64,000 nucleotides of DNA, from sequence record AJ697969.1. One strand, given 5' to 3'. This DNA is from Pseudomonas phage EL. Positions within the stretch are counted from its first letter, which is position 1. Every line of letters starts with the position of its first letter. Position numbers and translations under genes: made by a program. A model generated the notes under the pieces. The model was not told the DNA's origin, did no database searches, and worked only from the letters and a program-made list of their open reading frames with translations. Of the stretch, positions 1,889 through 59,330 are shown piece after piece.

Positions 1889-1906
1889 ACCTATATTACT
1901 CAGGTG
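1889..1906 (+). promoter_or_regulatory. phiKZ-type early promoter-like motif (aCCTATATTACTcaGGTG)
   Basis: TATATTAC core at 1892-1899, 37 nt upstream of the chaperonin ATG. Same core and flanking GGTG as the copies at 17336, 18625 and 59316. Confidence 0.55.
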
Positions 1907-1942
1907 TAATGCAATTAGGTATGGTTTAACAGGAGTACGAAG

Positions 1943-3619
1943 ATGTCTCAAACGCTACTGGTACATGGTAAAGATGCCCAAGGAATCATTAAACAGGTCT
2001 TGAGTGAGGTGTATGACGCCGTCACTTCGACCATGGGTCCGAATGGTCAGTTGGTGATGATCAAGAATGGGGTCTCCACCAAGACCACCAAGGATGGGGT
2101 GACGGTAGCCCGTTCCATTCGCTTTGCAGATGAAGCCCATGAATTGGTGAACCGGGTAATTACCGAGCCGGCTACGAAGACCGATGAGGAATGCGGGGAT
2201 GGCACTACCACCACCATCATGCTGACCCATGCGCTCTATCACCTGTTCAAGGACTTCCCAGGTTTCCAACACCACCGGAACATTGAAGACTTGGTAGAGC
2301 GGGTTATCCAACGTTTGGAATCCATGGCGATTCGGGTGGAAGTGGATGACCCTCGGTTGTATCAAGTGGCCCTGACCTCGTCTAACCAGGATGAAAAGCT
2401 CGCCCGACTGGTTAGTGAGCTCTATGCGAATAACAAAGGGAGTTATCCGGATATTGAACTCAAGGAAGGGGTCAACTTCGAAGACCAGATCGAACAAACT
2501 ACAGGGCGCACTATCCGTATGTTCTACGCGAATCCCTGGTTTGCGAAAGGCCACCAAGGGGGTGTGACAGAATTGACGGGGTTTACGGCGTTCGTTATCG
2601 ATCGTCGGATTGACAAGGAAGACACCCAGAAGTTGATTGATGGGGTGAATCACCTTGTGAAAACTCACAAACAACACCTGGCCCTTCCCATCCTGCTGAT
2701 TGCACGAAGTTTCGAAGAAGCCGCTAACTCGACCCTGATGCAATTGAATGCGGCGCACCCAACCCTGGTAGAAGACGGACGTCCTTGGTTAATCCCGTTG
2801 AGTACGCCGGTAGGTGGTGCAATTGGGACCTCTGAACTGCAAGACATCGCGGTCATGCTGAACGCCCCTATGCTCAGTGACGTAGCGGACCTGACCAAGT
2901 TGGATACCCATTCGATCAATGGCCAACACGGCCAACTGGAACTGGGGGGCAATCGGTCTATCCTGAAGAGTACCACACCTAAGGATGAAGACCGGATCGA
3001 ACAACATGCTCGGGGTATTGAGGAACTGTTGGAGGGGTTTAGCCTCAGCGATAAGTTCTCTGTACGCGCCCGGTACAACGAACGGCGTATTCGGACCCTA
3101 CGGGGTAAGTTGATCACCATTTCCGTAGGCGGCGAAACCTATTCTGAAGTCAAGGAACGGGTAGACCGGTACGAGGATGTGGTGAAAGCCATTCGTTCCG
3201 CCTTGGAGAACGGCATCCTTCCTGGCGGTGGCGTATCCCTGGTTAAGGCGGTCTTCGGTACGATCAAGGAAGGCCTCGAAGATAAAGACCAGAGCGCTGA
3301 GTTTGCTAAGCGGTATATCAACTCAGGCATTGCCAATGAGTTGATGCGACTGTCCACTATTCAGCATAAGCTGTTGTTCAAGGACACGGCGCTGTATAAG
3401 GAAAATGGGAGTTTCCATTTTAATGATGATTGGCTCAATACACCGACCGTCATGAATCTGGCAACTGGTGAGATTGGTACCCCGGAGGGATTGGGTATTT
3501 ATGACACCGCGTATGCCTCTATCACTGCGCTGAAAGGCGGACTCCAAACCGCTAAGATCTTGGCCACTACGAAGACACTGATCCTAGGGGAGAAGTTGTC
3601 GGCGGTTAAGGTGCGGTAA
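1943..3619 (+). CDS. GroEL-like (Cpn60) chaperonin, phage-encoded
   Basis: 558 aa. N-terminal region aligns with GroEL (TMGPNGQLVMI.., ..TKDGVTVARSI..). Canonical ATP-site motif GDGTTT (GDGTTTTIMLTHAL). GGAG SD. No GroES-like ORF adjacent. Confidence 0.85.
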   Translation: MSQTLLVHGKDAQGIIKQVLSEVYDAVTSTMGPNGQLVMIKNGVSTKTTKDGVTVARSIRFADEAHELVNRVITEPATKTDEECGDGTTTTIMLTHALYHLFKDFPGFQHHRNIEDLVERVIQRLESMAIRVEVDDPRLYQVALTSSNQDEKLARLVSELYANNKGSYPDIELKEGVNFEDQIEQTTGRTIRMFYANPWFAKGHQGGVTELTGFTAFVIDRRIDKEDTQKLIDGVNHLVKTHKQHLALPILLIARSFEEAANSTLMQLNAAHPTLVEDGRPWLIPLSTPVGGAIGTSELQDIAVMLNAPMLSDVADLTKLDTHSINGQHGQLELGGNRSILKSTTPKDEDRIEQHARGIEELLEGFSLSDKFSVRARYNERRIRTLRGKLITISVGGETYSEVKERVDRYEDVVKAIRSALENGILPGGGVSLVKAVFGTIKEGLEDKDQSAEFAKRYINSGIANELMRLSTIQHKLLFKDTALYKENGSFHFNDDWLNTPTVMNLATGEIGTPEGLGIYDTAYASITALKGGLQTAKILATTKTLILGEKLSAVKVR

Positions 3620-3630
3620 GGGGTTTGTAA

Positions 3631-3670
3631 AGGAGTAGGGGGAAGACCCCTACTCCTTTATTTTTTTTTT
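3631..3670 (+). terminator. rho-independent terminator
   Basis: Stem aggagtaggggg/ccctactcct followed by T10 run. Confidence 0.7.
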
Positions 3671-3781
3671 AAGGAAATCGATGGATGACGAAGCATTTGA
3701 AGGAGGTAGACATCCTATGCAGTGAGTCTTGTAACTTCTTTTGACTTACTCCCATTGGACCACCTTTAAGAGGATAAAGCA

Positions 3782-4411
3782 ATGGCTTCAAACCTTCCAA
3801 TCCAAACGATCTTCCTCGACAAATTCGTCGAGTTCAACAAAGACCGCTACAAAGACCAGGCGGAAATGCTCGCCCTCTTTGACGGCCTGACCCTCGCGGA
3901 CATCACGATCTCCGACATCACCGCCGACGGCGCCAACCCCGAGCTGCAAAGCGCCACGGTCACCTCTGTGAGCCGCAACTTCAAAGGTGTCGAACAAAAA
4001 TGGCTCCCGGCGAACATCAACACTCCGTTCGCCTTCGTGGTGGTGAACAAAGGCGCTCCCCTGACCGGCGAAGACCAACTGGCCGAGCAGACCACCCCGG
4101 GTGCCTACGTTTACCTGGTCGGTGAAGGCGAAGAAGCGGTTCAACGCGTGGGCCTGGTGCTGGCTTCCACCACCACCACTGAAACCCAAGCCGCCGACGC
4201 CCTGGCGCTGTTCAAGGCCAACTTCGAATACGTCCTGGACGACGCCGATGTCGATACTGCCACCGCCAAGGTGCTCAAGGTAACCACCAACCCGTTCACC
4301 CGCGGCGAGCTCGTGTACGAAATTGGTAAGGCTCCGATCATCGAGATTCCGGAAACTGACTACGGTCGTCTGGAATTCAAAGAAATCGTTCAACCCGAAC
4401 CCCAACCGTAA
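3782..4411 (+). CDS. hypothetical protein, GC3-rich; paralogue of the 16098-16691 product
   Basis: 209 aa. N-terminus IFLDKFVEFNKDRYKD..LTLADITISD matches LFLERFIAFNKERYSD..LTLDNTTLSD of the minus-strand ORF 16098-16691. Codons are strongly G/C-ending, unlike its neighbours. AGAGGATAAAGCAATG SD-like. Confidence 0.7.
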   Translation: MASNLPIQTIFLDKFVEFNKDRYKDQAEMLALFDGLTLADITISDITADGANPELQSATVTSVSRNFKGVEQKWLPANINTPFAFVVVNKGAPLTGEDQLAEQTTPGAYVYLVGEGEEAVQRVGLVLASTTTTETQAADALALFKANFEYVLDDADVDTATAKVLKVTTNPFTRGELVYEIGKAPIIEIPETDYGRLEFKEIVQPEPQP

Positions 4412-4420
4412 GCTAGATAA

Positions 4421-4448
4421 CTACCAAGTGGGCTAGCCCACTTGGTAG
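4421..4448 (+). terminator. hairpin terminator (stem only)
   Basis: ctaccaagtgggc tagc cccacttggtag perfect inverted repeat directly after the stop. Confidence 0.5.
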
Positions 4449-4566
4449 TTTACCTCTCTTCGTACCTCATTTCAATTCCAGTGAATTTCAAATCTACATC
4501 ATCAGTGTGAGCCAGGGGCAATAAAAGTTCACGGATGAATGAATTCTCTTGCAACTGGTGCTTTAA

Positions 4567-5148
4567 ATGTCATTAGGAATATTCACCATGAGTATGAGTA
4601 CTGCTAAAAGGGGTAACTTTTCTACGTCCCCCGGCAAGGAAGACGATGATCTTCCTCTGCACGAGATCCGGGATGCCTTTAATCCCGCGTTTGTGAAAAC
4701 GTTTGACAAACTGGGCCTCGACCCACAATTGATCAAAGAGTTTATTTACGCGCTTGATCTGCTCGACAACATCGTTAAGACCCCCAACTTCGTATCGGGC
4801 AGAATTCTGAATAACCGAGATATCGAAGCGTACGGCGAAGAAGCGGTCTTCGCGTTCAACCGGAATAACAATATCCCGTACTACTACGTGCGGTTGGGTA
4901 TTACCGTGTCGGAAACGGTGTACAAATTGCAGGACGAGTTTCTGGAACGTGATTATCCCAAAACGATCCTGAGTATTCTCCGCCCCATGCGCACGCCCGG
5001 TATTGACGTGACCGTAGACGGCCATCCTTACAACGTAGGGATTACCTTCAAAACGCCTCATCCTTTGTTCGGTTTGGTGAATTACCAAGATCTCCGGACT
5101 GGGATGAACACTTCAGTCCCCTTCCTACTCACTCGGGTGGGACTTTGA
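4567..5148 (+). CDS. hypothetical protein
   Basis: 193-aa ORF. An internal ATG at 4588 with AGGAA SD may be the true start. Confidence 0.5.
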   Translation: MSLGIFTMSMSTAKRGNFSTSPGKEDDDLPLHEIRDAFNPAFVKTFDKLGLDPQLIKEFIYALDLLDNIVKTPNFVSGRILNNRDIEAYGEEAVFAFNRNNNIPYYYVRLGITVSETVYKLQDEFLERDYPKTILSILRPMRTPGIDVTVDGHPYNVGITFKTPHPLFGLVNYQDLRTGMNTSVPFLLTRVGL

Positions 5149-5248
5149 TCCTCTACCTGCTCCACTGGGCTTAACGCTCCGGTGGAGCGGGGTAGGGGTT
5201 ATTACCGCTTTAAATTTTTCAATACACCAACCCAAAAAGGTAATAACC

Positions 5249-6133: not shown

Positions 6134-6162
6134 ACGGTAACCTTACCGAGGGAGTCAATCCC

Positions 6163-6741: not shown

Positions 6742-6753
6742 GAGGATTACATC

Positions 6754-7617: not shown

Positions 7618-7700
7618 TCTGTGAGTACGAGGTGGGGGGTAACACCCCTACCTCTACCTATGCTGTAACGCGCTGTAACACCCTTTAAAGAGTTTTTAAC

Positions 7701-8201: not shown

Positions 8202-8209
8202 ACACCGTA

Positions 8210-46148: not shown

Positions 46149-47594
46149 ATGAAACCGACTAACATTACCCTCTTAGACCCCCGGACGATTGTTCCGGGTG
46201 TCTTTAAACCTATTACGTCTACAGACTCATTTGAAGGGATGACCCAGAACCTCAATGATGACGGTCTCTTCTCCCTTGACATCTTCGGTAAACTGGGTAG
46301 TAAACAACGTGATAACACGGAAGCGTATATCGACGTTAAACTTCCCATCTTCAATCCCACTTACCTAAAAGCCCTTATACAGATCAAAAGTCTGTATCAT
46401 TCAATTTTGAAAGGGTCGGAATACGCGGTATGGGATCCCGAACTGAAGGATTTCATAAAATCGAACATCCTGGAAGGGGAAAAGGGTTTCGCCTTCTTCC
46501 TGAAACACTTCGATGAAACCGTCTTCTCCCTGACCCCCTCTCATAAACGCAAACAACGGGTAGAACTGGCGAACCAATTCCGTAACACGGCGTTAACGGA
46601 TAAGGTCCTGGTCATCCCCGCGGGTCTCAGGGATATCCAATTCAATCCAGATGGTTCCCACACCGAACCTGAAATCACTGAATTCTACCGCGCCTTAATG
46701 TTCCGGGTGAGAGTGATCCTCGGGAATAAGGAAGATGCCCTGAACCCCCTTTACGATACCGTTCGGTGGGGGGTACAGAATGCTTTCTTGGAATTGGATA
46801 ATTACCTCTTTGGTTTACTCCAGGGGAAAGGGGGTGTTCTCCAGCGTCGTATGTCCACCCGAGGGGTTCACAACAGCACCCGGAACGTCATTACCGCCCG
46901 TAAAGTCTCCAGGACACGTTTAGACTTCGACGACGGTGTAGGTCCTAACTCTGCGGACATGGGACTCTACCAAGCCCTGCTGAACTTCCCTTATGTCTGC
47001 ATCAATGCGTTAACCAACGGCTACCTTTCCAACATCTTCACCCCCAGCTCTCAAACCGCTAAGCTGGTGAATACCAAGACCCTGGAATACGAATACGCTG
47101 AAGTCTCCCCTGAGGTGGTAGAGAAATGGACCACCGCCACCGGGTTAATGAAACTCTTCAACGGGTTTGCCGATCCCTCCTTACGGAGTAAACCCATTGT
47201 CATTGAGTGGAAATACTTAGCCCTCATTTATGATGATGGGACTGATGTGTGTGTTCTCCATGACATCAACGATCTCCCTCAAGGGAAAGACCGTAAATGG
47301 GTGAAACCTATCACCTACATGGAACTCTTCTACTTGAGTTGCCACAGTGTCATCGAAGAACAGATTACAGGACAAACCCGGTATCCCATTACGGGGATTG
47401 GCTCTATCTTCCCGGCTAAGGTTAACCTACGTACCACCACCAATGCGAGCCAGCGGGTCATTCGTAATCCGATTGATTGGAGTGTGCGGGAAACCTGTAA
47501 ACGGTTCCCTAAACGTGAAGCCCACCCCGATTACTTCGATGCCATGTCCGTAGACCCCTCTAGAGAAGCTTTGCTCGACAGTGACCATGATTAG
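46149..47594 (+). CDS. multisubunit RNA polymerase beta-prime-like subunit, N-terminal fragment (exon 1)
   Basis: [25 protein letters not shown] aligns with E. coli beta-prime [39 protein letters not shown] occupies the place of the NADFDGDQMAVH catalytic loop. The stop TAG 47592-47594 coincides with the start of the group I intron. Confidence 0.7.
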   Translation: [481 protein letters not shown]

Positions 47595-49354
47595 ATAGTG
47601 ATGCATGATATAAACTCACTATACAACTCCTATTGTATGCGGAAGTGTTCGCATTCGACCATAAGGAGTTGTAAAGATGCTAACGTGTTTTGGAAAGAAA
47701 TACGTGTTGTCTACAACCAACACGGTTTACAATGTCACCGATAAGACAGATGTTCCAGTCCATCGGATGACAGACGGGAATACGTTCTTCATCGCACGGG
47801 GCGATGAAAACGAACTGGTTAAGATCAAACTGGGGTTAATGATCCTCCATGGAGAAGGAAAGTTCCATCTTCCTCTCTCTGAATGGGAACAGGTGAAAGT
47901 AGGTTTTCTGGATGACGATACAGGAAACTTTGCAGCGGATAACCTTTACTTGGTCTATCCTGAAGAGGGCATCCCTTACCCTGAACTCTCTGGGTACTAC
48001 TACATCCCTGGGTTTGAACTCAACGCAATCAACCGAGACGGTGTGGTATACCGAACAGTTAGAAAGAATCTTTACCCACCGTATCTGGGTGGTAACACCG
48101 TTCCTAACAGTTTCTACCCCTTTGTTCGACTGGATGTGGTCAGTGGGGATGAACGCAAGTATGTCCACCGGCTACTGGCGGAGACCTTCGGTAAGCCGCC
48201 TAAGGGCTACCCCAAGCTACTGGTCGACCATAATGACGGTAACAAGATGAACTTCAAGCTCTTTAACTTGATTTGGGTTACCGCTAAGGACAACTCCTTC
48301 AAAGCGTACAACAATCAAGAAGCGAGAGCGGACAATAATCCCTTGGAGGTTTTTGACAGGGAATTAGGTCAAGTCTTTAAGTACGTCAGTCAAAATGAGT
48401 TTGCGAGAACCATGGAGGTGGATTCTTGGTGCATTAGTCTGGTACTCAAACGTCCTCGTTCAGTGTACAAGAACAGGTACGTTCTTCGTCGGAAGGGAGA
48501 TACACGTGACTTCCAAGAGATCTGGGACTATAAGCCCCCTGTGGGTAAGAAGATCCTTGCCCGGAATGTCTTCACCGGTGAAATCACGGTGTATAATTCA
48601 TTGGCGGAGGCCTCTAGAGCAACACAGGTAGGGACAACAGGCATCCTGACGTCCCTGAGTAACACCAACCCGAGATCCGCCTTTAAAGACCTTCAATTCA
48701 AGCGGGAGTCTGACGAGACCCCTTGGCCTGATTTGAATGAATACGAACTGGAATGCATCCGGCGCAAGATGCACCCTGCTACAGCTGTGTATGAAATGTT
48801 TGATTCGGTAACCCAGGAGACGTCGATTGTGTATGGCGTTGATGCAGTTACCCGAATCACCGGAGCCAATCCCCGTACCGTTATCGTTTGCGCACGAGAA
48901 GGTAAGTTGCTCCATTCCCGTTATCGTTTCAAGAAACTTACACGTTAACGAGTTTATATCCATCACTTAGTCCGGCTAGGCACGAAAGTCCTAGACCGTA
49001 TTCCTCTGAATTGCTGGGAGTTCACAAAAGTCTGTTGGCTACAACGTAACTGGAAACAGTAAGCGTGAATGCGACCGAAAGGTAGAAAGAACAACAGACC
49101 TGACCTACGCTAACCAATAACGCTAAGGGTCGTAAACAAGGGACAATCAGCCGCTAAGACGCTACCGGGTATTAAACCCTATGCGTAAAGTTCAACGACT
49201 AAGGGAGTTATGACCCTGTACACCTACCAAGGAAGGGGGTGGAAGTGGAGGAGACCTAAGGGGGAATAGACCTATTCCCTACGGTCAAGATATAGTCTGG
49301 CCCTGTTTAATAAACAGGCAGGCACCTGAGTGTGCCGGGTCCTAGTACGGACTG
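47592..49354 (+). mobile_element. group I intron (about 1.76 kb) carrying an HNH homing endonuclease ORF
   Basis: Core elements downstream of the ORF: P-like CTGAATTGCTGGGAG (~49016), Q-like AATCAGCCGC (~49158), R GTTCAACGACTAAGG (49188-49202), S CAAGATATAGTCTGG (~49289-49303). These match the Tetrahymena intron R GUUCACAGACUAAA and S AAGAUAUAGUCGG. Then P9-type hairpins cctgtttaataaacagg, ggcacctgagtgtgcc, gtcctagtacggac. Boundaries are approximate and chosen to keep the frame. Confidence 0.6.
47677..48948 (+). CDS. HNH homing endonuclease (intron-encoded)
   Basis: 423 aa, AAGGAG SD. HNH core LLVDHNDGNKMNFKLFNLIWVT (H-x-DGNK-N....NL.WVT). Confidence 0.8.
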   Translation: MLTCFGKKYVLSTTNTVYNVTDKTDVPVHRMTDGNTFFIARGDENELVKIKLGLMILHGEGKFHLPLSEWEQVKVGFLDDDTGNFAADNLYLVYPEEGIPYPELSGYYYIPGFELNAINRDGVVYRTVRKNLYPPYLGGNTVPNSFYPFVRLDVVSGDERKYVHRLLAETFGKPPKGYPKLLVDHNDGNKMNFKLFNLIWVTAKDNSFKAYNNQEARADNNPLEVFDRELGQVFKYVSQNEFARTMEVDSWCISLVLKRPRSVYKNRYVLRRKGDTRDFQEIWDYKPPVGKKILARNVFTGEITVYNSLAEASRATQVGTTGILTSLSNTNPRSAFKDLQFKRESDETPWPDLNEYELECIRRKMHPATAVYEMFDSVTQETSIVYGVDAVTRITGANPRTVIVCAREGKLLHSRYRFKKLTR

Positions 49355-49546
49355 ACCACCGCGGGCGATCAATTGTCGAGCCATTCTGTTGTAGCGGAAG
49401 ACAGCAAACAACAGGCCTACGAACTCTTTGGGAAACGGGAGTATTACATCAGTGGTACGGGTCGGTTTTTGTACGATCCGATCAATGAACCGATTCTCTT
49501 TATGTTTAAAGCAGCGACGAGCGGCTTAGAGGATATTGAGGTATGA
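49355..49546 (+). CDS. putative exon 2 of the beta-prime-like gene (C-terminal ~63 codons)
   Basis: Frame-2 open stretch from 49346 (..TTAGDQLSSHSVVAEDSKQQAYELFGKREYYISGTGRFLYDPINEPILFMFKAATSGLEDIEV) ends in TGA overlapping ATG 49543 (ATGA). It has no start codon or SD of its own, consistent with an exon. Confidence 0.35.
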   Translation, partial: TTAGDQLSSHSVVAEDSKQQAYELFGKREYYISGTGRFLYDPINEPILFMFKAATSGLEDIEV

Positions 49547-52500
49547 GCAATCCAATTACGTATTCCGAGTTCTTTAAGCACTTTGTGCTGCGTAAGAAAC
49601 AAGACGTTGTAAACCCTAAAGTCCTGGGTATTGGTGAAGTGATCCTTCCTAAGGGGAGTTTACTGCACTTCGTACCGAAGACGATTAACGAAAAGGGACC
49701 GGGTAGTAGTGAAGCGTTTATCAGTAACTTCCCTAAAGAGGTCTTTATTGAGTTTGTAAGGGACGGGTATAAGCCGGTGATGGGGCATGGGCGGACAGTC
49801 GCCTATGACTACCCTAAGGCGGTTAAGGCGTACCGGGCGAGTCACTACATGTACAGCTGGGTGCGAGAGATCAGCACGGTGTACAACAAAGAGAACGTGT
49901 TGGTCGTTAAGAACTACGGGATGATTCCTCAGGGGTTCGTTTACCGTCCGAGTATTTTCGTGAATTATGAAAAATACTACAACATGATGCACCTGCTCAT
50001 TGAGAACATCAATGCAGAAGCCGAGAAAGGGGTGCGTCGGCAGTATATGCGGATTGACCTGCCGTTGAACCTGCCGTCCCTGGTTGAGCTTGAGAAAGAC
50101 TACGGACGGTTTATTGATGGGTTTAATGATGGGCATCCTGTCCTGATGCGCAATATGTTGGAGAGTACGAAGGCTGAGAACTGCTATTGGCTGTTGGACC
50201 TACTGGGGTTCCTGTTTGGCCAGTATTCGTTCAGTTTGTTCGGTAAACTCACCGACCAGGCGTATAAGGATTTGCATATCCTCTTTACGTCACAAAGTAA
50301 AGTCATTGTAGTACAACTGGGGCTGTTGAAGGGTTGGTTAGATGAAACAAATCCTAAAGACGAGAAAACCTACCCCTCTGCTCGGAAAGAGTTTGAAAGT
50401 CTGAAGACATTGACCCGCCATAATGCGGTTAAACGTTTCTATTTGGCTTTGATGAATCTTTCTCGTGGAGGCGTTCCTGAGAATGTACTCATTAAAGAGG
50501 AAACGAAAAATGTCATCCCAATTGCCGGAGAGAAAGGTACCGTTGACCAAGTGGCTGCGGGAACGTCACGAGAAGAAGAAGAAGAAACATCCAATCTTCC
50601 AGAAACCCGAGACCATACTGGCTCGGGCACGGTTCCCCGTGCTGATCGTCCTGCTGGTTCTATCCTTGATGTTTTCAGCCGAAGTGAAGGACCTGGCGAG
50701 GCACATGACGAAGAGCAAGACACAGCGGGAGAACGAGGTGCTGATTCAAATCTTGAAGAGTGGACATCGCCGGTAGATGATGAACTGCTGGAGGTGGAGA
50801 AAGTCCAAACCGAGATCAATACCAACAAGAATGTGTTTAAGACGCCTGAGAGTGGTGTAAAGCGGGCGTTGGAGGAGCGGGCTAAGGAAGGTACGCTGAC
50901 GGTGGCTGAACATGATTTCTTCATGCGTAAAGCGACCCGTTATCAGCACATTGAGATGGAGAACGGTCAAACGTTCGAAGAGTTCATTCAGATCAAACCC
51001 GAAGAGGTTAAAGACCTGGGTGGAGAGATTGAAGGTGAGTTTCTCCCCGTACTGGATGAGAGCATGTTGCGGAGTCGTGCCAAATCCCTCAAGATCGAAT
51101 ATCCTCAGAAGTTTTTACACCGGGATATTGGTCGAATGGTGTTGGGTCTTCAGAACGCTGGCTTTGCGATGAACGACTACCGGCGTGAGAAGGTCGTCAG
51201 CGTAGAAGGCAGTTACGAGGTCCACAGCATTCAGTTACACGAAGTCAATGGTGATCAGGTCACTGTACATACTCGGTTGCCTACGGTGCTGAAAGACGGC
51301 ACCTACGTCATTGATGGTGTTAAGCAACACATGCAACTGCAACGTCGGGAGAAACCTTTCCGGAAGATCAGTCCTCGGGAAGTGGTGCTGTCGAGCTATT
51401 ACGACCGTAAGCTCATGGTGAGTCGTAGTCCGAAGATGGTGGATAACCTCTCTACGTTCATGGTGAAGCAAATCTCCCTCCAGAGTAAGCGGAAAGGGTA
51501 TACGGTCACTAAAGGCAGTACGTGGGATCGCTCCCTTAAAGCCCCCCGGATTTACAGCATTCTGGCTCGTCAGTACAAGTACATTACTGTCGACGGGTTG
51601 GTATTGGACTTCCGGTTGAAGGATCTCCTGGAACTCCACCCTGAGTTCAAAGCCTATACCCGCCCTGATCGGTTCTTGATTGGGGTAAAAGACGGATTAC
51701 CTTTGATCATTGATGATTACGGTAACCTGTACAAAGGGGAAGAGGAACTCGGTACTGTTGAAGACTTGCTCGGTATTGATGTTCGTAAAGCGCCTTTGGA
51801 ACACGTGGTGATTAACATCAGCGGGTATTCGTTTCCGTTGGGAGTGGTCCTGTGCTTCTACTTCGGTATTGATGAACTGTTGCGGGTGATTAAAGCCACG
51901 ACGCGTTCGGTACCCGTAGGGACTCGCCCTAAATTGACGGAGGATGAATACGCGATTCAGTTCAATGACGAATACTTGATCTTTAACCGTCGGGAGAAGC
52001 TCACCACGTTGATCTTCGGTGGAATGCCGAAGTTGAACAACATCAGTAACTTCAGTCGGAGTGATTTGAATAATAACAGTATTTGGAGTGCGTTAATGGG
52101 AGACCCTCGGGTTCGCCCATCTCAGTTCCAGGAAATGAAGAACCTCTTCGATCTCTTTATCGATCCCATTACGAAAGACCTCTTGAAAGAGATGAAGCTG
52201 TCTGAAGACTTCCATTACTTGCTGATTGATGCGGCTAAGGCATTGGAAACGGATTACAGTCGACACGAGGTGGAGATTGAAGAGCAACGCATTGTAGGGT
52301 ATGAACGCTTCGCGGGTCATCTCTACACGGAATTTGTAAAGTCCATTCGTCAATACCGGAATAAGGGGAAAGGACGTAAACACAAACTGGACTTTAATCC
52401 GGACGCGGTTATTATTGCCATTGGTACTGACCGGTCTACGAACTTGGTGGAGGAAGTGAATCCAGTTCACCAAGTGAAGGACCAAGAGGAAGTGACGTTT

Positions 52501-52746
52501 GGGGGTACGGGTGGTCGTAGTGAAATCACCATGGTCAAACGCGCACGGACTCAGCTGGAGAGTTACAAAGGGGTCATCAGTGAAGCCAACAAGGACAGTG
52601 GTAAAGTGGGGTATGTGACCTACACCACCTCTGATCCGGGTATCGCTGATTTCCGAGGCAATGTTGATCCCAAGAACAAACGTACTCCTACCGGTGACGG
52701 TTCGGTAACTATGAACCTGATGTACGGTGGAACGCATGACGATTGA
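49543..52746 (+). CDS. multisubunit RNA polymerase beta-like subunit, N-terminal fragment (exon 1) with long phage-specific N-terminal extension
   Basis: 1067 aa. GTYVIDGVKQHMQLQ aligns with beta GTFIINGAERVVVSQL. NPVHQVKDQEEVTFGGTGGR aligns with beta Rif-region [20 protein letters not shown]. Acidic low-complexity segment (SREEEEETS..). GAGGA SD. Stop TGA 52744-46 at intron start. Confidence 0.7.
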   Translation: MSNPITYSEFFKHFVLRKKQDVVNPKVLGIGEVILPKGSLLHFVPKTINEKGPGSSEAFISNFPKEVFIEFVRDGYKPVMGHGRTVAYDYPKAVKAYRASHYMYSWVREISTVYNKENVLVVKNYGMIPQGFVYRPSIFVNYEKYYNMMHLLIENINAEAEKGVRRQYMRIDLPLNLPSLVELEKDYGRFIDGFNDGHPVLMRNMLESTKAENCYWLLDLLGFLFGQYSFSLFGKLTDQAYKDLHILFTSQSKVIVVQLGLLKGWLDETNPKDEKTYPSARKEFESLKTLTRHNAVKRFYLALMNLSRGGVPENVLIKEETKNVIPIAGEKGTVDQVAAGTSREEEEETSNLPETRDHTGSGTVPRADRPAGSILDVFSRSEGPGEAHDEEQDTAGERGADSNLEEWTSPVDDELLEVEKVQTEINTNKNVFKTPESGVKRALEERAKEGTLTVAEHDFFMRKATRYQHIEMENGQTFEEFIQIKPEEVKDLGGEIEGEFLPVLDESMLRSRAKSLKIEYPQKFLHRDIGRMVLGLQNAGFAMNDYRREKVVSVEGSYEVHSIQLHEVNGDQVTVHTRLPTVLKDGTYVIDGVKQHMQLQRREKPFRKISPREVVLSSYYDRKLMVSRSPKMVDNLSTFMVKQISLQSKRKGYTVTKGSTWDRSLKAPRIYSILARQYKYITVDGLVLDFRLKDLLELHPEFKAYTRPDRFLIGVKDGLPLIIDDYGNLYKGEEELGTVEDLLGIDVRKAPLEHVVINISGYSFPLGVVLCFYFGIDELLRVIKATTRSVPVGTRPKLTEDEYAIQFNDEYLIFNRREKLTTLIFGGMPKLNNISNFSRSDLNNNSIWSALMGDPRVRPSQFQEMKNLFDLFIDPITKDLLKEMKLSEDFHYLLIDAAKALETDYSRHEVEIEEQRIVGYERFAGHLYTEFVKSIRQYRNKGKGRKHKLDFNPDAVIIAIGTDRSTNLVEEVNPVHQVKDQEEVTFGGTGGRSEITMVKRARTQLESYKGVISEANKDSGKVGYVTYTTSDPGIADFRGNVDPKNKRTPTGDGSVTMNLMYGGTHDD

Positions 52747-53158
52747 GCTGTTGTGAAAACAATAGATCACTCAGTCCAACCAGGGAGTAATCCCTTGTTG
52801 CCATTACCTTTAATTGCGGGAACCTACTGAGAGCCTTATCTACCAAACCCGAGCAGGAAACCAACGGGTGGCCAACCATAACGGGTTGGGGACGGTAATA
52901 ACGATAAGGATTGGGGAACCCTACGCAGCGAAGCACCTACGTATTGTCGAGAGGACAAGATAGGGTGAACGTTCAACGACTACGGATGAAATTTCCGGTA
53001 GAGGTGTCAGGATGATACTTCCAAAAGTAAGGTTGCCCTGTATGCTTGAGGTGTGAATAACACTGAGTACAGGGATGAAATATAGTCTCGTCATCTAAGG
53101 GAAAACCTTAGAGCGTGGTGCTACGCGCACCGGCGGATAGGATATCCGTGAAGAAACG
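52744..53158 (+). ncRNA. group I intron (ORF-less, about 415 nt)
   Basis: P TTAATTGCGGGAACC (~52817; matches Tetrahymena AAAUUGCGGGAAA). Q-like CGCAGCG (~52945). R GTTCAACGACTACGG (52968-52982). S GATGAAATATAGTCTCG (~53073). Hairpins ctaaggGAAAAccttag, ggtgcTACGcgcacc, cggataGgatatccg. Boundaries are approximate. Confidence 0.55.
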
Positions 53159-53200
53159 GTCAAACGAGCAGTATTCACATCGACTCAGGCCTCTCAAGCA

Positions 53201-54277
53201 GTGATGGCTAAGAACTACGAGATCGTTACCCTGAGAACGGGTTACGAGAATGTACTGGCTCACCGGACCTCTGACCTCTACAGCAAAGTAGCCGCTGAAG
53301 ATGGTAAGGTCACTAAAGTGGAGAACGATCGCTTACTCGTCGAATACAAGGACGGAACAACGGACTCGTATCCCTTGGGGTTGGTGATTGGGGAAGCCAG
53401 TGGGGAATATCATCCCCACAGCCGTACCACAGATCTGAAGGTCGGAGATACCTTCCGTAAGGGAGATGTCATCGGTTGGGATGAAAACTGGTTCGGTCGA
53501 GATCCCTTCTGCCCAGGGCAAGTCGGGGTTAAGATGGGTAAAATGTGCCAGATCGTTATGGTGGAAGATCAGGATGTGTACGAGGACTCTATTGCAATTT
53601 CGAAAGAATTGGCGATGGAAGCACGTACCCCATTCATTAAACCCAGTCGGTTTGCCGAGGACGTGTCAAACAACCTGGTAATGCGGGTTAAGGTAGGAGA
53701 TTACGTCGAACAGGACACGATTTTATGTGATATCGAAGAGCCTCACTTGGTGGAGGGCGAGGAGCTTCCTGAGCTCGAAGCAGACATCAACAAACTCGGT
53801 ATCAAACAGATCCGTTCGAAGCATCATGGAAAGATCGTACACATCGATGTTCGGTACAACTCTCCCTTAGACAAGATGTCTGACTCGTTCCGTTCGTTCA
53901 TTGTTCAGAAGGATAAGGAAACGAAACGGAAAGGGTTGGTGGAAGGAACCGGTGTCGAGAACAATGCCATTTCCACGATGTTCAATCTTAATCGTCCCAT
54001 GTTAGGTCCAGGTAAGGCGTTCATTACGTTCTACATCGAGTCGTTAGACCCGAGTACCAATGCGGATAAGTATGTCATTGGGAACCAGATGAAAGCCACT
54101 GTGGGTCGTATCATGGAAAGACCGCTTAAGACCGCCAGTGGGATTGTCATTGATGTGAAGTCGAGCTTTAAAGGGATGTTTAACCGAATGGTGCTCAGTT
54201 TGAGGAACAAGCTGGTTGCTAACGAGTATGGTTACCAAATCACTCGCCAGGCCATTAAACTCTACAGAGGTAAATAA
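53201..54277 (+). CDS. RNA polymerase beta-like subunit, middle fragment (probable exon 2; open frame extends upstream to 53141)
   Basis: [23 protein letters not shown] aligns with beta [37 protein letters not shown] aligns with beta VSGTVIDVQVF. The annotated start is GTG/ATG 53201-53206 without a clear SD. Confidence 0.55.
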   Translation: [358 protein letters not shown]

Positions 54278-54279
54278 CG

Positions 54280-55158: not shown

Positions 55159-55189
55159 TTCACCTTCTTTTCCGTAGGAGAGTTTCCCT

Positions 55190-55366: not shown

Positions 55367-56913
55367 TCAGTAAGGACAGCCTGGCGTTGGCAGAGAACAT
55401 CGCCGTCGCGCTCCCTGAAGGCACTGTAGTCCCATCCACCCCGATCCTTCAGGGGTTGAATACCCTGAGTTATGGGGCGTTCCCGTACGAGGAGGACTTC
55501 CGGGATAAGGTGGTTGAAGTGACTTCCGAGATCACGGAGCATTCGGCAGCGATTGAGGCGGGGAGTGACAAAGCCGCTGAGACCATCCGCGGTGCGTTCG
55601 AGATGGTGAAGTCCTACGGCGTCCCGATGGCGGACGCCATCCAGGAGAAAGTGGGTCTGCTGTACAGCCGAGGTGATCTGAACTGGGCGTCGTTGCGTCA
55701 TTTCAATATCACGTACATCAATGTCTCGGATCCGTTCTTTGACTCGGCTATTTATCCTACTGAAGTCAAGAACAAGGCGTTGTCGTTTGACAGTGTGGGT
55801 CTGGATGTCCTGAAACGGTTGGAGTTTGAATTCGCAACGGAACAGGAGATCCGGGATTACGTGGCAACGTCTCACCCAGAGATTAATGCCATCCTGGATT
55901 CCAAACTCGAAGACATCGTGTACGCGTTCTACGCGATTACGATGCTGGCCGATCTCAAATCCCTTTTCCACTACAAGGGTGAGGCGACCTTTGACTTCAC
56001 GCGTGTGAAATCGGTACGCCTTAACCTGCTGCTGAAGACCTACGTGATCTTGACGAAGATGTACAGTCAGGAAGACCCGGCGTTCCTGGTTAAGGGGTCG
56101 TTGGAGGATTACCGGGAGTATATCAACCTGCTGTGGAATGGGATGACCCATTACCTCATTGCGTTGAAGAACACGGTTCAACTTTACCGTAACCGTAAAG
56201 CGGCTATCTACGAGGCTGAAGCCTCTAAGTTGGTGGACTTTAAACCAGTTGATGCCCTGGACGTTACCGTTAAGGGATTGAGTGGTAATGTCGTCGTGTA
56301 TTACAGTGATGAGGTCCTCAAGACAGTAACCGGTAATGGGGGGAGTTTGAACGACTGTGTGATCGCCTCGATCTATGGGCGTCTCACCGGTCGTCCGAAT
56401 GGCTTCCTGGACCTCATCAATAACCCTGACCTGGTTAAAGACTTGACGGCTAACTACTTCGAGGGTATTCACCGTCCACTGAACCAAGATGCCCGTAAAC
56501 ATTTCATTAACAACAGTGTTGGGGCTATTGTTCAGTTCCTGAATGAACGGGAAGAAGCTCGGGCGGCGTTGTATGAGCATTTGGATGCAGAAGGGTCTTC
56601 GGTCCGTACCCTCATTGAAGAGAACCTGAGCGGTGACCTGGACGTTCTCTACACCCTCTACGAGAACGACGTCCGCAAGAGCAGTGGCGTTGAACCTGTG
56701 AGCATGGAGATTGAGGCTCAACGGGCGAAAGAGGTCATCTTCCAAACCAAACTCGTCCCTAACTTCTTGAAGTTGTTGGGGTGTGAACTGGCTGCGGAGA
56801 TCATTGAGCTGACCTTTGTTAAGCTCGGTGAGGAAGACAACCTCAACAGCAAGCGTGAACGCCTCCATGGGGCGTTGATTGAACTGCTGGTGGGTGAACT
56901 GCTGGGAGTTTAA
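55363..56913 (+). CDS. hypothetical protein
   Basis: 516-aa ORF, AAGGAG SD. Confidence 0.6.
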   Translation: MISKDSLALAENIAVALPEGTVVPSTPILQGLNTLSYGAFPYEEDFRDKVVEVTSEITEHSAAIEAGSDKAAETIRGAFEMVKSYGVPMADAIQEKVGLLYSRGDLNWASLRHFNITYINVSDPFFDSAIYPTEVKNKALSFDSVGLDVLKRLEFEFATEQEIRDYVATSHPEINAILDSKLEDIVYAFYAITMLADLKSLFHYKGEATFDFTRVKSVRLNLLLKTYVILTKMYSQEDPAFLVKGSLEDYREYINLLWNGMTHYLIALKNTVQLYRNRKAAIYEAEASKLVDFKPVDALDVTVKGLSGNVVVYYSDEVLKTVTGNGGSLNDCVIASIYGRLTGRPNGFLDLINNPDLVKDLTANYFEGIHRPLNQDARKHFINNSVGAIVQFLNEREEARAALYEHLDAEGSSVRTLIEENLSGDLDVLYTLYENDVRKSSGVEPVSMEIEAQRAKEVIFQTKLVPNFLKLLGCELAAEIIELTFVKLGEEDNLNSKRERLHGALIELLVGELLGV

Positions 56914-56916
56914 TGA

Positions 56917-57645
56917 ATGGACGTTACTTCTCTCGTACGAGACCGAAGTAAGATCCGTAAGGCGTACACCCTCCACGACGATCACAGTGTCACTGCAAAT
57001 CGTCCTCTGGAAGTTCATATTCCCAAACGTTTTACTGAACATGGGTTAGCGTTTATTGGGGATAAGGTGACCACTACGTTAGTGGCGGGTGTTGTCATCC
57101 CGGGGGAGTGTTACTCCCCTTGGGTGGCGTTGACGGATGTCACGATGGTCCCTATGAACGTTCGGGAGACGGGTATTGACGGCGTTCAGTACCTTATCCT
57201 GGAGTTTGAAGAAGGGGATACCCTTATTGAGAACCTTCGGTATATCCAAGACCCCAATAAGCCCTACTTCTATTTCACTGAGTTTGACCTCTACGCGAAG
57301 ATTCCTTGGTACTTATCAGACAATGATGTCACCTCCTTGTTTGATAACGCTAAGATACAATCAGGCAGTGAAGTTGGTGATACGCCGCAACACATGCGGA
57401 TCTTTAATTCCGTTATGATGCGGGATCCGGATAACTTGGACAATCCGTATCGCAACAGTCAAGCCATGCTAGACGGTCGCCCTCCGGTATGGGTAGGGTT
57501 GAATAACAGCTCAATGCTGATTGACGGCACCTACTTGAAACTCACCGGAGGTTTCCTCCAAGACAACACGGTGGCTGCTATTATCAAGCAAGACACCAAA
57601 GTAACCGATCTGGAAATGATCGTTAAAGGGGTCCCAGATGAGTAA
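56917..57645 (+). CDS. hypothetical protein
   Basis: 242-aa ORF, 3-nt gap to previous gene. Confidence 0.55.
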   Translation: MDVTSLVRDRSKIRKAYTLHDDHSVTANRPLEVHIPKRFTEHGLAFIGDKVTTTLVAGVVIPGECYSPWVALTDVTMVPMNVRETGIDGVQYLILEFEEGDTLIENLRYIQDPNKPYFYFTEFDLYAKIPWYLSDNDVTSLFDNAKIQSGSEVGDTPQHMRIFNSVMMRDPDNLDNPYRNSQAMLDGRPPVWVGLNNSSMLIDGTYLKLTGGFLQDNTVAAIIKQDTKVTDLEMIVKGVPDE

Positions 57646-58501
57646 TACTTTAACCTTTGAGAATACCCTGCTGGCAAACAGTGGTAAACGGGGTATTCTC
57701 AAACCCATGGACAGTTCGGGGTACTACCGGATCAATGCGGGAGGGTTCAATATCCCTAACCGTTCCGGTATTACCTACCGGGTGAATGACTACATTCGTG
57801 AGTGTGCTCGTCCAGGCAGTGATTTTGACCGTCGGGTGAACGAAGGCCAGATGTATTGTGAAATCGGCCACCCACCTCAGTATTACAAGATCTTGGTCAA
57901 TGGCGAAGTGGTTCGCAAGCAGATCACGGATCTCTTCGAATGGATTAACCGCCTTCGGACCATTGACTTTGATAATGTCTGTGGTCATATTCGTAAAGTC
58001 CATTGGATCTTTACGGGTGGACCGAACGATCCGGTTTACAATGACATTGAAGTGATTCCGTGGGCGAAGAACCCACATCATAAGCAACTGCTGCAAGAAA
58101 GTCTGGATAATCCGGATATCAATACGGCGTTTAGTATCCGTACGGTAACCAAGCCTCAGAACTTTGGCGATAAAACGCGCGAGGTGGACTACTGGAGCAC
58201 GTATGACGCTGTCATAGAGCAGGGTATACTCCGTGCGTGTAAACACCTCACAGCGGGCTTGGAGAGCCTTCTGGACGACTATTCCGCTGAGGGTGGTGAA
58301 ATGGAGTTCACCACGACCATGGAAGAGCTCTTCTTTATCTGCGATCAGAAGATGCGTTCACCTGAAGTGGCGGAACGTTATGCGGGTACGGAAAGCTTTG
58401 TTCGAGTACAGGAAATGCTGGATGATCTCCGTAGACGAACACCTGCTCAATCCAAACCTGCGCGGTTGATTGTGTCCAGTTCGTTGGATGTGTTCCGGTA
58501 A
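57638..58501 (+). CDS. hypothetical protein
   Basis: 287-aa ORF overlapping the previous by 8 nt. Confidence 0.55.
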   Translation: MSNTLTFENTLLANSGKRGILKPMDSSGYYRINAGGFNIPNRSGITYRVNDYIRECARPGSDFDRRVNEGQMYCEIGHPPQYYKILVNGEVVRKQITDLFEWINRLRTIDFDNVCGHIRKVHWIFTGGPNDPVYNDIEVIPWAKNPHHKQLLQESLDNPDINTAFSIRTVTKPQNFGDKTREVDYWSTYDAVIEQGILRACKHLTAGLESLLDDYSAEGGEMEFTTTMEELFFICDQKMRSPEVAERYAGTESFVRVQEMLDDLRRRTPAQSKPARLIVSSSLDVFR

Positions 58502-58516
58502 GCCTGAGCCAGCATG

Positions 58517-58546
58517 CCTAGCCTTGGGGTAGACCCCAAGGCTAGG
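58517..58546 (+). terminator. hairpin terminator
   Basis: cctagccttgggg taga ccccaaggctagg followed by TTATTAATTTT. Confidence 0.55.
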
Positions 58547-58619
58547 TTATTAATTTTAGCTGTTTGTTTATTCTTATAGTCCGTTGCGGCTAACCATTTA
58601 AACCAGAAGGAATTTCCTT

Positions 58620-59288
58620 ATGTTGATTGAAAAGCTTAATTTCCAAACCCTGGTGCTTCATCTGCGTGAGGTGAAGGGAGGGTTTAATGTTCTCCAGGTA
58701 TTGTGGGAAACCGCCCAGAAGGAATGGGAACGTTCCAAGAATGCTGATACAGACATCCATTTCATCAAAGGCGTGTTTACTTCCACTCAGAAAACCGATG
58801 CGGTCCGGATCTATGTGGCGAAGCTGGCTAAGCTGTACATGAACACCGTGGGGGTACTGCCGGGGATGTGGTCCAAACATACTCTGACCCATGAGCATAT
58901 CCTGACCAAAGCCACTGTGGACAAGATTTGCACCATGGAAGTGAACAGTTCCGAACAGTTGTTCGAATTGGTTGCCACCCGTGTATTGGGAGTTGATAAA
59001 ACCCTGGTGGAGTATATCCTGACCGATGAAGACAAACCCCGGGATCGCGCCCGTATCCTGATTAACTACCTGGGGTACCGTGTGGATGAACCGGGTGTCC
59101 CGGAAGAGGACTACCCTGACCTCATCAGTAGCCTGAGTGAGTTGATCGGTAACAATGGGTTTACAGATGAGTTCTTTGAGAACCTGTTGAAGGAAGCAGA
59201 AACCTACTTCGATAGCGGATCGGTTGACTTCCAACAAACCCCGTTGGATGTGTTGGAGAACTTCCTGCACCAACCCTGCAAGCAATAA
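58620..59288 (+). CDS. hypothetical protein
   Basis: 222-aa ORF, AAGGAA SD. Confidence 0.55.
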   Translation: MLIEKLNFQTLVLHLREVKGGFNVLQVLWETAQKEWERSKNADTDIHFIKGVFTSTQKTDAVRIYVAKLAKLYMNTVGVLPGMWSKHTLTHEHILTKATVDKICTMEVNSSEQLFELVATRVLGVDKTLVEYILTDEDKPRDRARILINYLGYRVDEPGVPEEDYPDLISSLSELIGNNGFTDEFFENLLKEAETYFDSGSVDFQQTPLDVLENFLHQPCKQ

Positions 59289-59306
59289 GGGGTTTTGCCC
59301 AAAAGA

Positions 59307-59330
59307 TTTCAAGTCTATATTACTTGGGTG
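59307..59330 (+). promoter_or_regulatory. phiKZ-type early promoter-like motif (TTTCAAGTCTATATTACTTGGGTG)
   Basis: Identical over 22 nt to 17329-17350. TATATTAC core at 59316-59323. Next ATG at 59428. Confidence 0.6.

Follow-up and report, generated by a model that had tools for sequence, protein, structure and literature searches.

The 64,000-nucleotide stretch of the Pseudomonas phage EL genome analysed here (the window) carries seven promoter-like elements that form one sequence family, are restricted to the plus strand and to non-coding DNA, and share a register with the early promoters of phage phiKZ; upstream of two genes, the position of the family's elements is conserved across phage genera. 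By analogy with phiKZ and AR9, these elements are very probably early promoters read by a multisubunit RNA polymerase (RNAP) packaged in the virion, with transcription starting at or next to a conserved TG. Phage-specific early promoters of this phiKZ-like type had been proposed by a first-pass annotation of the DNA, and the identity of the phage, its RNAP genes, the published motifs and the phiKZ register all agree with that proposal. Early signals of this type have already been described for the phage group; the finding is correct but ordinary, and leaves knowledge of the group unchanged.

Sequence family and distribution

The first-pass annotation had listed four copies of a long element upstream of plus-strand genes, at 1889-1906 (aCCTATATTACTCAGGTG), 17329-17350 (TCAAGTCTATATTACTTGGGTG), 18617-18640 (ATCAGGTCTATATTACCTTTGTGT) and 59307-59330 (TTTCAAGTCTATATTACTTGGGTG), and all four stretches read as described. 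As it also observed, GTAATCArGTCTATATTAC is common to the second and third copies, and the identity that it reported over 22 nt between two copies extends to 23 nt (17329-17351 and 59309-59331, the second and fourth). Its consensus, TCTATATTACTyGGTG, is one base short of the actual string (TCTATATTACTTGGGTG), and because of the missing base the printed 16-mer matches the second and fourth copies only, with two mismatches. All four copies fit TATATTAC-N4-GTG.

After the 16-mer had failed, the pattern TAYATTAY-N4-GTG and then a position weight matrix were used for the search. The matrix scan returned exactly seven sites in the window (Table 1), all at 29.5 bits or more and on the plus strand, with none between 5 and 29 bits. 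In the related phage MIZ-Pa99, the whole genome contains 19 sites of at least 25.7 bits and one of 18.9 bits, the next best scoring 13.1; all 20 lie on the plus strand, upstream of plus-strand genes. The motif search that the annotation had suggested as a check thus gave 7 and 19-20 sites. The regulon that it proposed for the four copies is larger, with seven sites in the window and some 20 in each genome.

Table 1 Predicted early promoters (P1-P7), the genes that follow them, and RNAP genes in the window
Feature	Position	Strand	Core position	Score (bits)	Predicted start	Sequence or match	Remarks
P1	1882..1908	+	1892	31.4	~1906/1907	ttaataaaccTATATTACtcaggtgta	copy 1 of the earlier list; before chaperonin gene
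P2	4485..4511	+	4495	34.4	~4509/4510	atttcaaatcTACATCATcagtgtgag	absent from earlier list; non-coding
P3	16793..16819	+	16803	36.9	~16817/16818	ttttcaaaccTACATAATcagggtgaa	absent from earlier list
P4	17326..17352	+	17336	29.6	~17350/17351	taatcaagtcTATATTACttgggtgat	copy 2 of the earlier list
P5	18615..18641	+	18625	29.5	~18639/18640	taatcaggtcTATATTACctttgtgta	copy 3 of the earlier list
P6	33848..33874	+	33858	33.1	~33872/33873	ttttcagaccTACATTATtcgtttgag	absent from earlier list
P7	59306..59332	+	59316	32.3	~59330/59331	atttcaagtcTATATTACttgggtgag	copy 4 of the earlier list
Chaperonin, GroEL-like, 558 aa, after P1	1943..3619	+				Pfam Cpn60_TCP1, E = 8e-27	groEL in relatives' annotation
193-aa protein after P2	4567..5148	+				no Pfam or PHROG match	58 nt from conserved G
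Small ORF after P3	16860..17036	+					likely true start ATG 16860, AAGGAG 8 nt upstream
Two ORFs, 159 aa and 135 aa (GC3-rich pair), after P4	17392..18324	+				no Pfam or PHROG match	
Arc-like ribbon-helix-helix protein, 118 aa, after P5	18692..19048	+				Pfam PF03869 Arc, E = 5.9e-14	
192-aa protein after P6	33894..34472	+				phrog_15064, unknown function	22 nt from conserved G
146-aa protein after P7	59428..59868	+				phrog_13587, unknown function	98-nt leader, structured when folded
RNAP beta/beta'-like ORF cluster	46149..54277	+					subunit ORFs 46149-47594, 49543-52746, 53201-54277
HNH endonuclease ORF inside RNAP cluster	47677-48948	+					

The family consensus is AG-N4-wTTTCAAAyC-TAyATtAy-N5-TG-a. 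It comprises three blocks over about 30 nt, with AG some 29 nt upstream of the predicted start, then wTTTCAAAyC, then the core TAyATtAy followed after 5 nt by an invariant TG; counted from the TG, the core, middle and AG blocks are centred on the -10, -20 and -30 regions, respectively. Relative to the core, TTTCAA occupies -9..-4, the same columns as TTTAAA in phiKZ, and AG occupies -15/-14. Core positions 2, 4, 5 and 7 are invariant among 19 sites. Four window sites have exactly TATATTAC as their core and the other three (P2, P3 and P6) TACATnAT.

Counts of the core exceed expectation: exact TATATTAC occurs four times in the window against 1.27 expected, a number reached in 4 of 100 shuffles, and CTAYATTAY six times against 1.16 expected, which no shuffle reached. 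All four exact copies lie on the plus strand and, given the Arc-like plus-strand ORF, in non-coding DNA, and since non-coding DNA makes up 5.4% of the window-equivalent, the chance of the latter is 0.054^4, about 8e-6. For the seven cores together, six or seven of which lie in that 5.4%, P = 1e-7 to 1e-9. One relative's annotation places the third copy within a minus-strand ORF. An equal frequency of the motif inside coding regions, named beforehand as evidence against a promoter role, was not seen, as no strong sites occur inside long coding regions of either the window or the whole related genome.

Downstream genes and leaders

The distance from the motif end to the next ATG is 37, 42, 53 and 98 nt for the four copies first listed, within the 37-100 nt claimed for them. 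Predicted leaders of the seven window sites are 22-98 nt long (median 43); phiKZ leaders are typically 31-40 nt (PMC8244752). The site closest to the published EL consensus, P3, sits in a divergent intergenic region, and for the small ORF that follows it the annotation of relatives uses an earlier GTG start. The pair of ORFs after P4 has GC3 values of 0.66 and 0.73, against 0.54-0.66 in the large genes of the window.

The copies had also been described as often preceded by a terminator, which a consensus scan combined with structure prediction for the 80 nt before each site did not bear out: the 60 nt before each of the four contain no terminator-like site. The hairpin before the first copy lies inside the upstream ORF, at its 3' end, and relatives do not conserve it, and the strong terminator closest to the third copy lies about 260 nt upstream. 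We rejected terminator association as a general feature of the elements, a convincing hairpin (4419-4450) being found only before the additional site at 4495.

Conservation across genomes

Seven EL-like (Elvirus) Pseudomonas jumbo phages share 97-98% identity with the window. The sequences of P1, P5, P6 and P7 are unchanged in three EL-like relatives, and P4 carries an A to G change at an otherwise invariant core position in HHBS47_1. Across EL-like genomes, 7 of 189 motif columns vary versus 92 of 1337 flank columns, so that the motif is only modestly more conserved than its surroundings; this and the HHBS47_1 change count against the favoured reading.

Position is conserved over greater distances. 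Like P1 in EL, copies of the motif precede the chaperonin gene of Erwinia phage RisingSun (chaperonin identity 40% at the protein level) and that of Klebsiella phage Miami. MIZ-Pa99 and phiKZ each have a copy upstream of the nuclear-shell gene; an early promoter has been reported for PHIKZ054 (PMC8244752). In N1M2 the chaperonin gene follows a short gap that lacks the motif. A search of 100 kb of RisingSun and 50 kb of phiKZ returned no orthologues of the downstream genes other than the chaperonin, and positional conservation can therefore be assessed for the chaperonin and nuclear-shell genes only. The scanned 100 kb of RisingSun contain about 12 sites, all on the plus strand. The TG was left out of a query against IMG/VR, yet 18 of 25 matches on contigs of at least 200 kb have it, compared with 8 of 55 on shorter contigs.

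RNA polymerase genes and a proposed model of early transcription

Genes for multisubunit RNAP beta/beta'-like subunits are encoded both in the window and genome-wide, and the annotation of the whole MIZ-Pa99 genome lists about 10 RNAP beta-like coding sequences in addition to nuclear-shell and PhuZ genes. Four window ORFs match RNAP beta-subunit families of PHROGs, with E values between 1e-117 and 0 in the cluster at 46149..54277, although Pfam does not recognise the subunit ORFs. The ORFs beginning at 46149 and 49543, and a separate one at 31402, have no match to the solved chains of the phiKZ non-virion RNAP, and a gp55-like control subunit from outside the window matches phiKZ PHIKZ055 (PDB entry 7OGP). 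The RNAP cluster in the window probably contributes subunits to the virion RNAP by which these promoters would be read. The promoter-like element is absent upstream of all ORFs of the cluster, 46149..54277.

Under the proposed mechanism, a multisubunit RNAP packaged in the virion would enter the cell together with the DNA and recognise the element with neither a host sigma factor nor new protein synthesis. Transcription would start at or beside the G of the TG, giving the leader lengths above, and would cover short plus-strand early operons that encode the chaperonin, the Arc-like DNA-binding protein and a number of small proteins without known function; outside the window, the gene for the nuclear-shell protein would also be transcribed from such an element. 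We infer the polymerase by analogy with phiKZ and AR9 and the exact start site from spacing, and the timing is likewise an inference; a literature search found no data on start sites, timing or rifampicin response in EL or close relatives, and no in vitro recognition of early promoters by purified virion RNAP.

For EL-like phages, our analysis sets out predicted early transcription units that can be tested, seven of them in the window, with starts predicted to within 1-2 bases. It places the chaperonin and the Arc-like DNA-binding protein in the predicted early set. One register is kept across Elvirus, Risingsunvirus, Phikzvirus and many uncultured jumbo phages, and could be used to annotate early genes and to choose templates for studying how virion RNAP, which has no sigma-factor homologue, finds its promoters.

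Core forms and alternative readings

The core occurs in two coupled forms, T3 with C8 (TATATTAC, the phiKZ form) and C3 with T8 (TACATTAT, the EL form). MIZ-Pa99 has seven sites of the first form, nine of the second and one mixed site (Fisher p = 4e-4), and both forms coexist in RisingSun. It is conceivable, though we consider it unlikely, that the two differ in how strongly or when they are read and make up, for instance, an immediate-early and a delayed-early sub-class, in which case the four copies first listed would represent one sub-class. This presupposes that the coupling reflects a recognition constraint and not the shared descent of copied promoters; the window copies of TATATTAC share long flanks, which suggests recent copying and counts against sub-classes. 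Furthermore, the chaperonin promoter has TATATTAC in EL, TACATTAT in RisingSun and TATATCAC in Miami, and OBP-like and uncultured jumbo phages mostly use TATATTAT.

The elements might instead belong to the middle class of promoters. The chaperonin protein has been reported only from 15 min after infection (PMC7185714), which fits middle as well as early expression; some expected early genes of 201phi2-1 have no early motifs, and its classes overlap (PMC11512511); and PHIKZ054 carries both an early and a middle promoter (PMC8244752). However, neither the phiKZ middle motif, a weak AT-rich/TACT element centred 22-24 nt before the start, nor the late motif, TATG at the start, matches the three-block element (PMC7598289, PMC8244752). 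Core and register coincide exactly with the phiKZ early class, and we regard a middle-class assignment as quite improbable.

Bacterial sigma-70 promoters consist of TTGACA, a spacer of 16-18 nt and TATAAT, with a conserved A at -11 and T at -7. The elements could be read as such promoters, serving host-dependent early transcription, if TATATT or TACATT were the -10 hexamer, with a weak TTAAC-type -35 at 18 nt upstream of it. Two sites, 17312-17341 and 18601-18630, do pass a loose sigma-70 scan (TTAACG or TTAACT, 18-nt spacer, TATATT; 9 of 12 matches), the family is weakly TTAA in columns -24 to -21, and some phiKZ-related Ralstonia phages need host RNAP (PMC7598289). However, these are the only two of the seven sites to pass, at the lowest threshold and with the 18-nt spacer, and sigma-70-like sites are depleted in the window (8 versus 17.3 expected, 14 versus 20). 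Moreover, the same motif serves phiKZ in rifampicin-resistant infections (PMC7598289, PMC13282480). The invariant features of the family (the C before the core, the A at core position 7, the TG 5 nt downstream and the TTTCAA abutting the core) are not those of sigma-70 promoters, whose key T at -7 varies here (13 T, 3 A, 3 C). Because of this conservation pattern we reject host sigma-70 promoters as a very improbable reading.

Operators of the ribbon-helix-helix (Arc/MetJ) type are two-fold symmetric inverted repeats, with an orientation independent of the gene. That the elements are operators of a repressed regulon, bound by a phage DNA-binding protein such as the Arc-like one (18692-19048), and not promoters themselves is scarcely credible: an Arc-family gene does lie directly downstream of one copy, and the element ends, read from the consensus, form an imperfect inverted repeat (TTCAA ... 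GTGAA), but the core is not palindromic, the motif is common to phiKZ and RisingSun with no Arc-like gene beside the sites examined there, and strict co-orientation with the downstream gene (20 of 20 in MIZ-Pa99, all of about 12 in the 100 kb of RisingSun, and the phiKZ sites too) fits a directional promoter and not a symmetric operator.

Comparison with known early promoters

Early promoters read by virion RNAP agree with what has been described in related phages. AT-rich motifs of about 10 nt near -10 form the early-promoter consensus and must be recognised by the virion RNAP (PMC7598289), and the -10/-20/-30 block layout has been reported for phiKZ and 201phi2-1 (PMC11512511). Published motifs are WTTTYAAACCTACATTATY for EL, credited to the EL genome paper (Hertveldt et al. 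2005), TATATTAC for phiKZ and ...BTATATTACDWHDGTG for 201phi2-1 (PMC7058600 Table 2). The EL consensus comes from the same lineage and describes the same element: three of the window sites fit it but for 1-2 mismatches, and all seven align in one register. The four copies first listed differ from it at several positions (the second at 6 of 19) and are missed by a search that allows up to three mismatches.

In phiKZ, 28-32 early promoters have been located by primer extension, RNA-seq and dRNA-seq and attributed to the virion RNAP. Within its first 50 kb, TATATTAC occurs seven times, always on the plus strand and in intergenic DNA, and the register is that of EL-like phages, with TTTAAA at -9..-4 and TG at +13/+14 from the first core base. 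The four copies first listed have the 8-nt core of the phiKZ promoters and resemble them in use of one strand, intergenic location and leaders of tens of nucleotides. Unlike phiKZ, EL-like sites have TTTCAA (C for A), a fixed C before the core and, frequently, the alternative core TACATTAT; their number, about 20 predicted per 210 kb, compares with the 28-32 mapped per 280 kb in phiKZ. The TTTCAR block, TATATTAY core and equally spaced downstream GTG recur in the mapped or predicted early promoters of 201phi2-1 (…TTTRARR-BTATATTACDWHDGTG) and in OBP and N1M2 (…TTTCARRYAKATATTATYWAAGTG), although the A/T-rich upstream parts of all three are longer than in EL-like sites, and OBP-type phages use TATATTAT, which is rare in EL-like genomes. 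The early sites of 201phi2-1 have been confirmed by ONT-cappable-seq and lie about 10 bp upstream of the start (PMC7058600, PMC11512511).

A probable early-promoter family in the phage EL window

The promoter-like elements of the Pseudomonas phage EL window are most probably early promoters read by the virion-packaged multisubunit RNA polymerase (RNAP), the best-supported reading. All four copies noted in the first-pass annotation (sites 1-4) are present as described: site 2 matches site 4 without a difference for 23 nt, GTAATCArGTCTATATTAC is common to sites 2 and 3, and the gaps to the next ATG (37, 42, 53 and 98 nt) agree with the claimed spacing of 37-100 nt. The 16-mer printed as their consensus lacks one base, and TATATTAC-N4-GTG fits all four. 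The exact phiKZ form of the 8-nt AT-rich core, TATATTAC, occurs four times in the window versus 1.27 expected, a count reached in 4 of 100 shuffles; every copy lies on the plus strand and, if the plus-strand Arc-like ORF downstream of site 3 is accepted, in non-coding DNA, which makes up only 5.4% of the sequence. One relative's annotation places site 3 within a minus-strand ORF.

Relaxing the search to the core CTAYATTAY, or running it with the published EL promoter consensus, added three plus-strand sites with a TACATnAT core, and all seven sites (P1-P7) align in one register. A matrix built from the sites was used to scan the window and the complete genome of the EL-like relative MIZ-Pa99. 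It returned exactly seven sites in the window, all scoring at least 29.5 bits, with no further site down to 5 bits; of the seven cores, either six or all fall in non-coding DNA according to the annotation chosen (P = 1e-7 to 1e-9). In MIZ-Pa99, 19 sites scored at least 25.7 bits and one 18.9 bits, the next best match being 13.1. All 20 are on the plus strand and precede a plus-strand gene, being either intergenic or overlapping a very small, questionable ORF; among the genes so preceded are those for the nuclear-shell protein, an HslV-like peptidase, the chaperonin and PhuZ, whose site is the weakest. The family consensus is AG-N4-wTTTCAAAyC-TAyATtAy-N5-TG-a, with the A of TTTCAA, the C before the core, core positions 2, 4, 5 and 7 and the downstream G invariant. 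Sites 1-4 are the window's copies with the phiKZ-form core, and the regulon of four proposed earlier is part of this larger family. One MIZ-Pa99 member outside the window (attttaaaccTAGATTATtgatgcgtt at 102330, 26.7 bits) is followed by about 566 nt without an annotated gene, the next CDS starting at 102910, and an unannotated small gene or non-coding RNA may lie there under an early promoter.

Promoter-family sites and neighbouring features in the window
Feature	Position	Strand	Detail
P1 (site 1)	1889-1906	+	core 1892
Terminator hairpins	3627-3661, 8210-8239, 19262-19295, 62123-62153	+	several of the strongest; related stems, GGAGTAGGGG / CCCCTACTCC type
Hairpin	4419-4450	+	14 bp; 8 nt past stop of ORF 3782-4411, 45 nt upstream of P2 core
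P2	4495	+	core
P3	16803	+	core
P4 (site 2)	17329-17350	+	core 17336
Annotated hypothetical gene	18602-18886	-	MIZ-Pa99 annotation
P5 (site 3)	18617-18640	+	core 18625
Terminator-like hairpin	18646-18661	+	AAGGCGTGGTTGCCTT, then CCTATTTTTA; T-run to ~18671
Arc-like ORF	18692-19048	+	Pfam Arc, E = 5.9e-14
P6	33858	+	core
2543-aa ORF	38487-46118	-	single ORF
RNAP beta-like ORF	46149-47594		PHROG profile
HNH endonuclease ORF	47677-48948	+	Pfam HNH_3
Group I intron match	48945-49317	+	Rfam, 51.1 bits vs gathering 50, E = 4.6e-10
RNAP beta-like ORF	49543-52746		PHROG profile; phrog_3148 positions 2-1050
Second group I intron candidate	52709-53113	+	40.5 bits, below gathering 50; E = 7.5e-9, 701-nt search
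RNAP beta-like ORF	53201-54277		PHROG profile; phrog_3148 positions 1065-1423
P7 (site 4)	59307-59330	+	core 59316
Leader hairpin	59328-59397	+	opens 98-nt leader of site 4, at predicted start

Conservation and the two core forms

The window's first 6 kb are 97-98% identical to seven Pseudomonas aeruginosa jumbo phages of the EL group (Elvirus), and the final 64 kb of the MIZ-Pa99 record is the counterpart of the window. The relatives' annotation includes a GroEL-like chaperonin, a nuclear-shell protein, a PhuZ tubulin and about ten "RNA polymerase beta subunit" genes; EL is a relative of phiKZ that encodes multisubunit RNA polymerases of its own. Across the 27-nt elements of four EL-like genomes, 7 of 189 columns vary versus 92 of 1337 in the flanks, a weak test at such divergence. 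Apart from an A to G substitution in the 17336 site of the relative HHBS47_1, which alters core position 2 and gives TGTATTAC, all the changes are at degenerate columns. Comparing the motif's position between genera is more informative. In Erwinia phage RisingSun (chaperonin identity 40%), ttttcacaccTACATTATctatatgta stands 50 nt upstream of the chaperonin gene, and the 100 kb searched hold about 12 sites, all on the plus strand; Klebsiella phage Miami has ttttggatcTATATCACcgtcttgatg in the same place; the motif was not found in the short gap before the chaperonin gene of N1M2. A scan of IMG/VR for TTTCAAAYCTAYATTAYY, a query that excludes the TG, gave many matches; among the first 80 listed, 25 were on contigs of at least 200 kb, and the TG was present in 18 of these versus 8 of the 55 on shorter contigs.

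Core positions 3 and 8 covary. MIZ-Pa99 has seven TATATTAC cores, nine of the EL form TACATTAT and one mixed site (mixed forms being TATATTAT and TACATTAC; Fisher p = 4e-4), and RisingSun carries both TATATTAC and TACATTAT. It is doubtful that the two forms are sub-classes differing in strength or timing. A common origin of copied promoters would account for the covariation more simply, because orthologous chaperonin promoters switch form between genera, OBP-like and uncultured phages have mostly TATATTAT, and the window's TATATTAC copies have long flanks in common.

Terminators and leaders

The first-pass statement that the copies are often preceded by a terminator was not borne out: in the 60 nt ahead of each of the four, the scan found nothing resembling a terminator. 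The hairpin before site 1 belongs to the end of the upstream ORF, and relatives do not conserve it. The hairpin upstream of P2 is likely a terminator, overlooked by the simple scan on account of its T-poor tail; in MIZ-Pa99 two changes (A to C paired with T to G) compensate each other and preserve the stem. Within the leader of the Arc-like gene, the AAGGCGTGGTTGCCTT hairpin lies only 7 nt past the start predicted for site 3; it is identical in three relatives and might, by analogy, be an attenuator; early terminators in 5' leaders have been reported for phiKZ, a possible parallel. The leader of site 4, nearly identical in three relatives, folds over 103 nt (59328-59430) with a minimum free energy of -37.2 kcal/mol (z = -2.8; 5 of 200 shuffles as stable), and could be a regulatory leader or small RNA. 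The related stems of several of the strongest terminators recall the conserved terminator motifs of phiKZ and 201phi2-1 (PMC11512511).

Polymerase genes and annotation conflicts

PHROG profiles identify four RNAP beta-like ORFs, at 31402, 46149, 49543 and 53201. Compared with the solved phiKZ non-virion RNAP chains, none of ORFs 31402, 46149 and 49543 matched any chain, whereas a gp55-like control encoded outside the window did, so the window probably encodes part of the virion enzyme. The element is absent upstream of all the window's RNAP genes, as expected if these are late genes.

ORFs 46149 and 49543 flank the HNH endonuclease gene and the group I intron match, which begins at the HNH stop codon; the frame of ORF 49543 is closed directly upstream. 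The second intron candidate lies in the 454-nt gap between ORFs 49543 and 53201, which match consecutive positions of one RNAP subunit profile, and this RNAP gene (49543-54277) may be split by an intron without its own ORF. HHBS47_1 names the Arc-like ORF 'partition protein ATPase', probably wrongly, and the overlapping minus-strand call of MIZ-Pa99 is probably also wrong, since the plus-strand ORF has an Arc ribbon-helix-helix domain and an upstream promoter-like site. The region of the 2543-aa ORF is one tail-fibre gene in HHBS47_1 and two in MIZ-Pa99 (38469-41933, 41978-46096); either the gene is genuinely disrupted there or the discrepancy stems from sequencing or annotation.

Alternative readings and comparison with known promoters

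It is unlikely that the elements are middle-class promoters or are read by the non-virion RNAP, as they bear little resemblance to the middle and late motifs published for phiKZ (PMC7598289, PMC8244752). Host sigma-70 promoters are less likely again: two sites pass a loose scan (9 of 12 matches, 18-nt spacer), giving slight support, but the invariant positions are not sigma-70 features and the base equivalent to T -7 varies. Sigma-70-like sites are also depleted (8 versus 17.3, sd 3.4, in shuffled sequence for window 1-20000; 14 versus 20.0, sd 3.7, for 44001-64000), which fits a phage independent of host RNA polymerase. An operator for the Arc-like protein is the least credible proposal, because the core is asymmetric and all sites point the same way as their genes.

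An early promoter of phiKZ type, as the first-pass annotation suggested, is supported by the match of the family to the predicted EL promoter, WTTTYAAACCTACATTATY, in the table of PMC7058600, which also gives TATATTAC for phiKZ, ...TTTRARR-BTATATTACDWHDGTG for 201phi2-1 and ...TTTCARRYAKATATTATYWAAGTG for OBP and N1M2; the window family is this EL motif. Every RNAP-encoding jumbo phage has a conserved motif upstream of presumed early operons, which is the early-promoter consensus wherever transcripts were profiled; it is AT-rich, about 10 nt long and centred near -10, and must be recognised by the virion RNAP (PMC7598289). In phiKZ, whose infection is insensitive to rifampicin (PMC7598289, PMC13282480), 28-32 such promoters start early transcription. 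The EL chaperonin protein is detected from 15 min after infection (PMC7185714). The element class was already known, from the predicted EL consensus and the phiKZ early promoters; our analysis adds the complete site list, corrected details and cross-genus support.

The first 50 kb of phiKZ contain seven copies of TATATTAC, all intergenic and on the plus strand, and one phiKZ copy lies upstream of the nuclear-shell gene PHIKZ054. In phiKZ, TTTAAA occupies columns -9 to -4 and TG columns 13-14, in the same register as in the EL-like sites. The virion RNAP would start at or beside the conserved TG; with the start set there, the three blocks are centred near -10, -20 and -30, as described for the early promoters of phiKZ and 201phi2-1 (PMC11512511), and leaders would measure 22-98 nt (median 43), which agrees with typical phiKZ leaders of 31-40 nt (PMC8244752).
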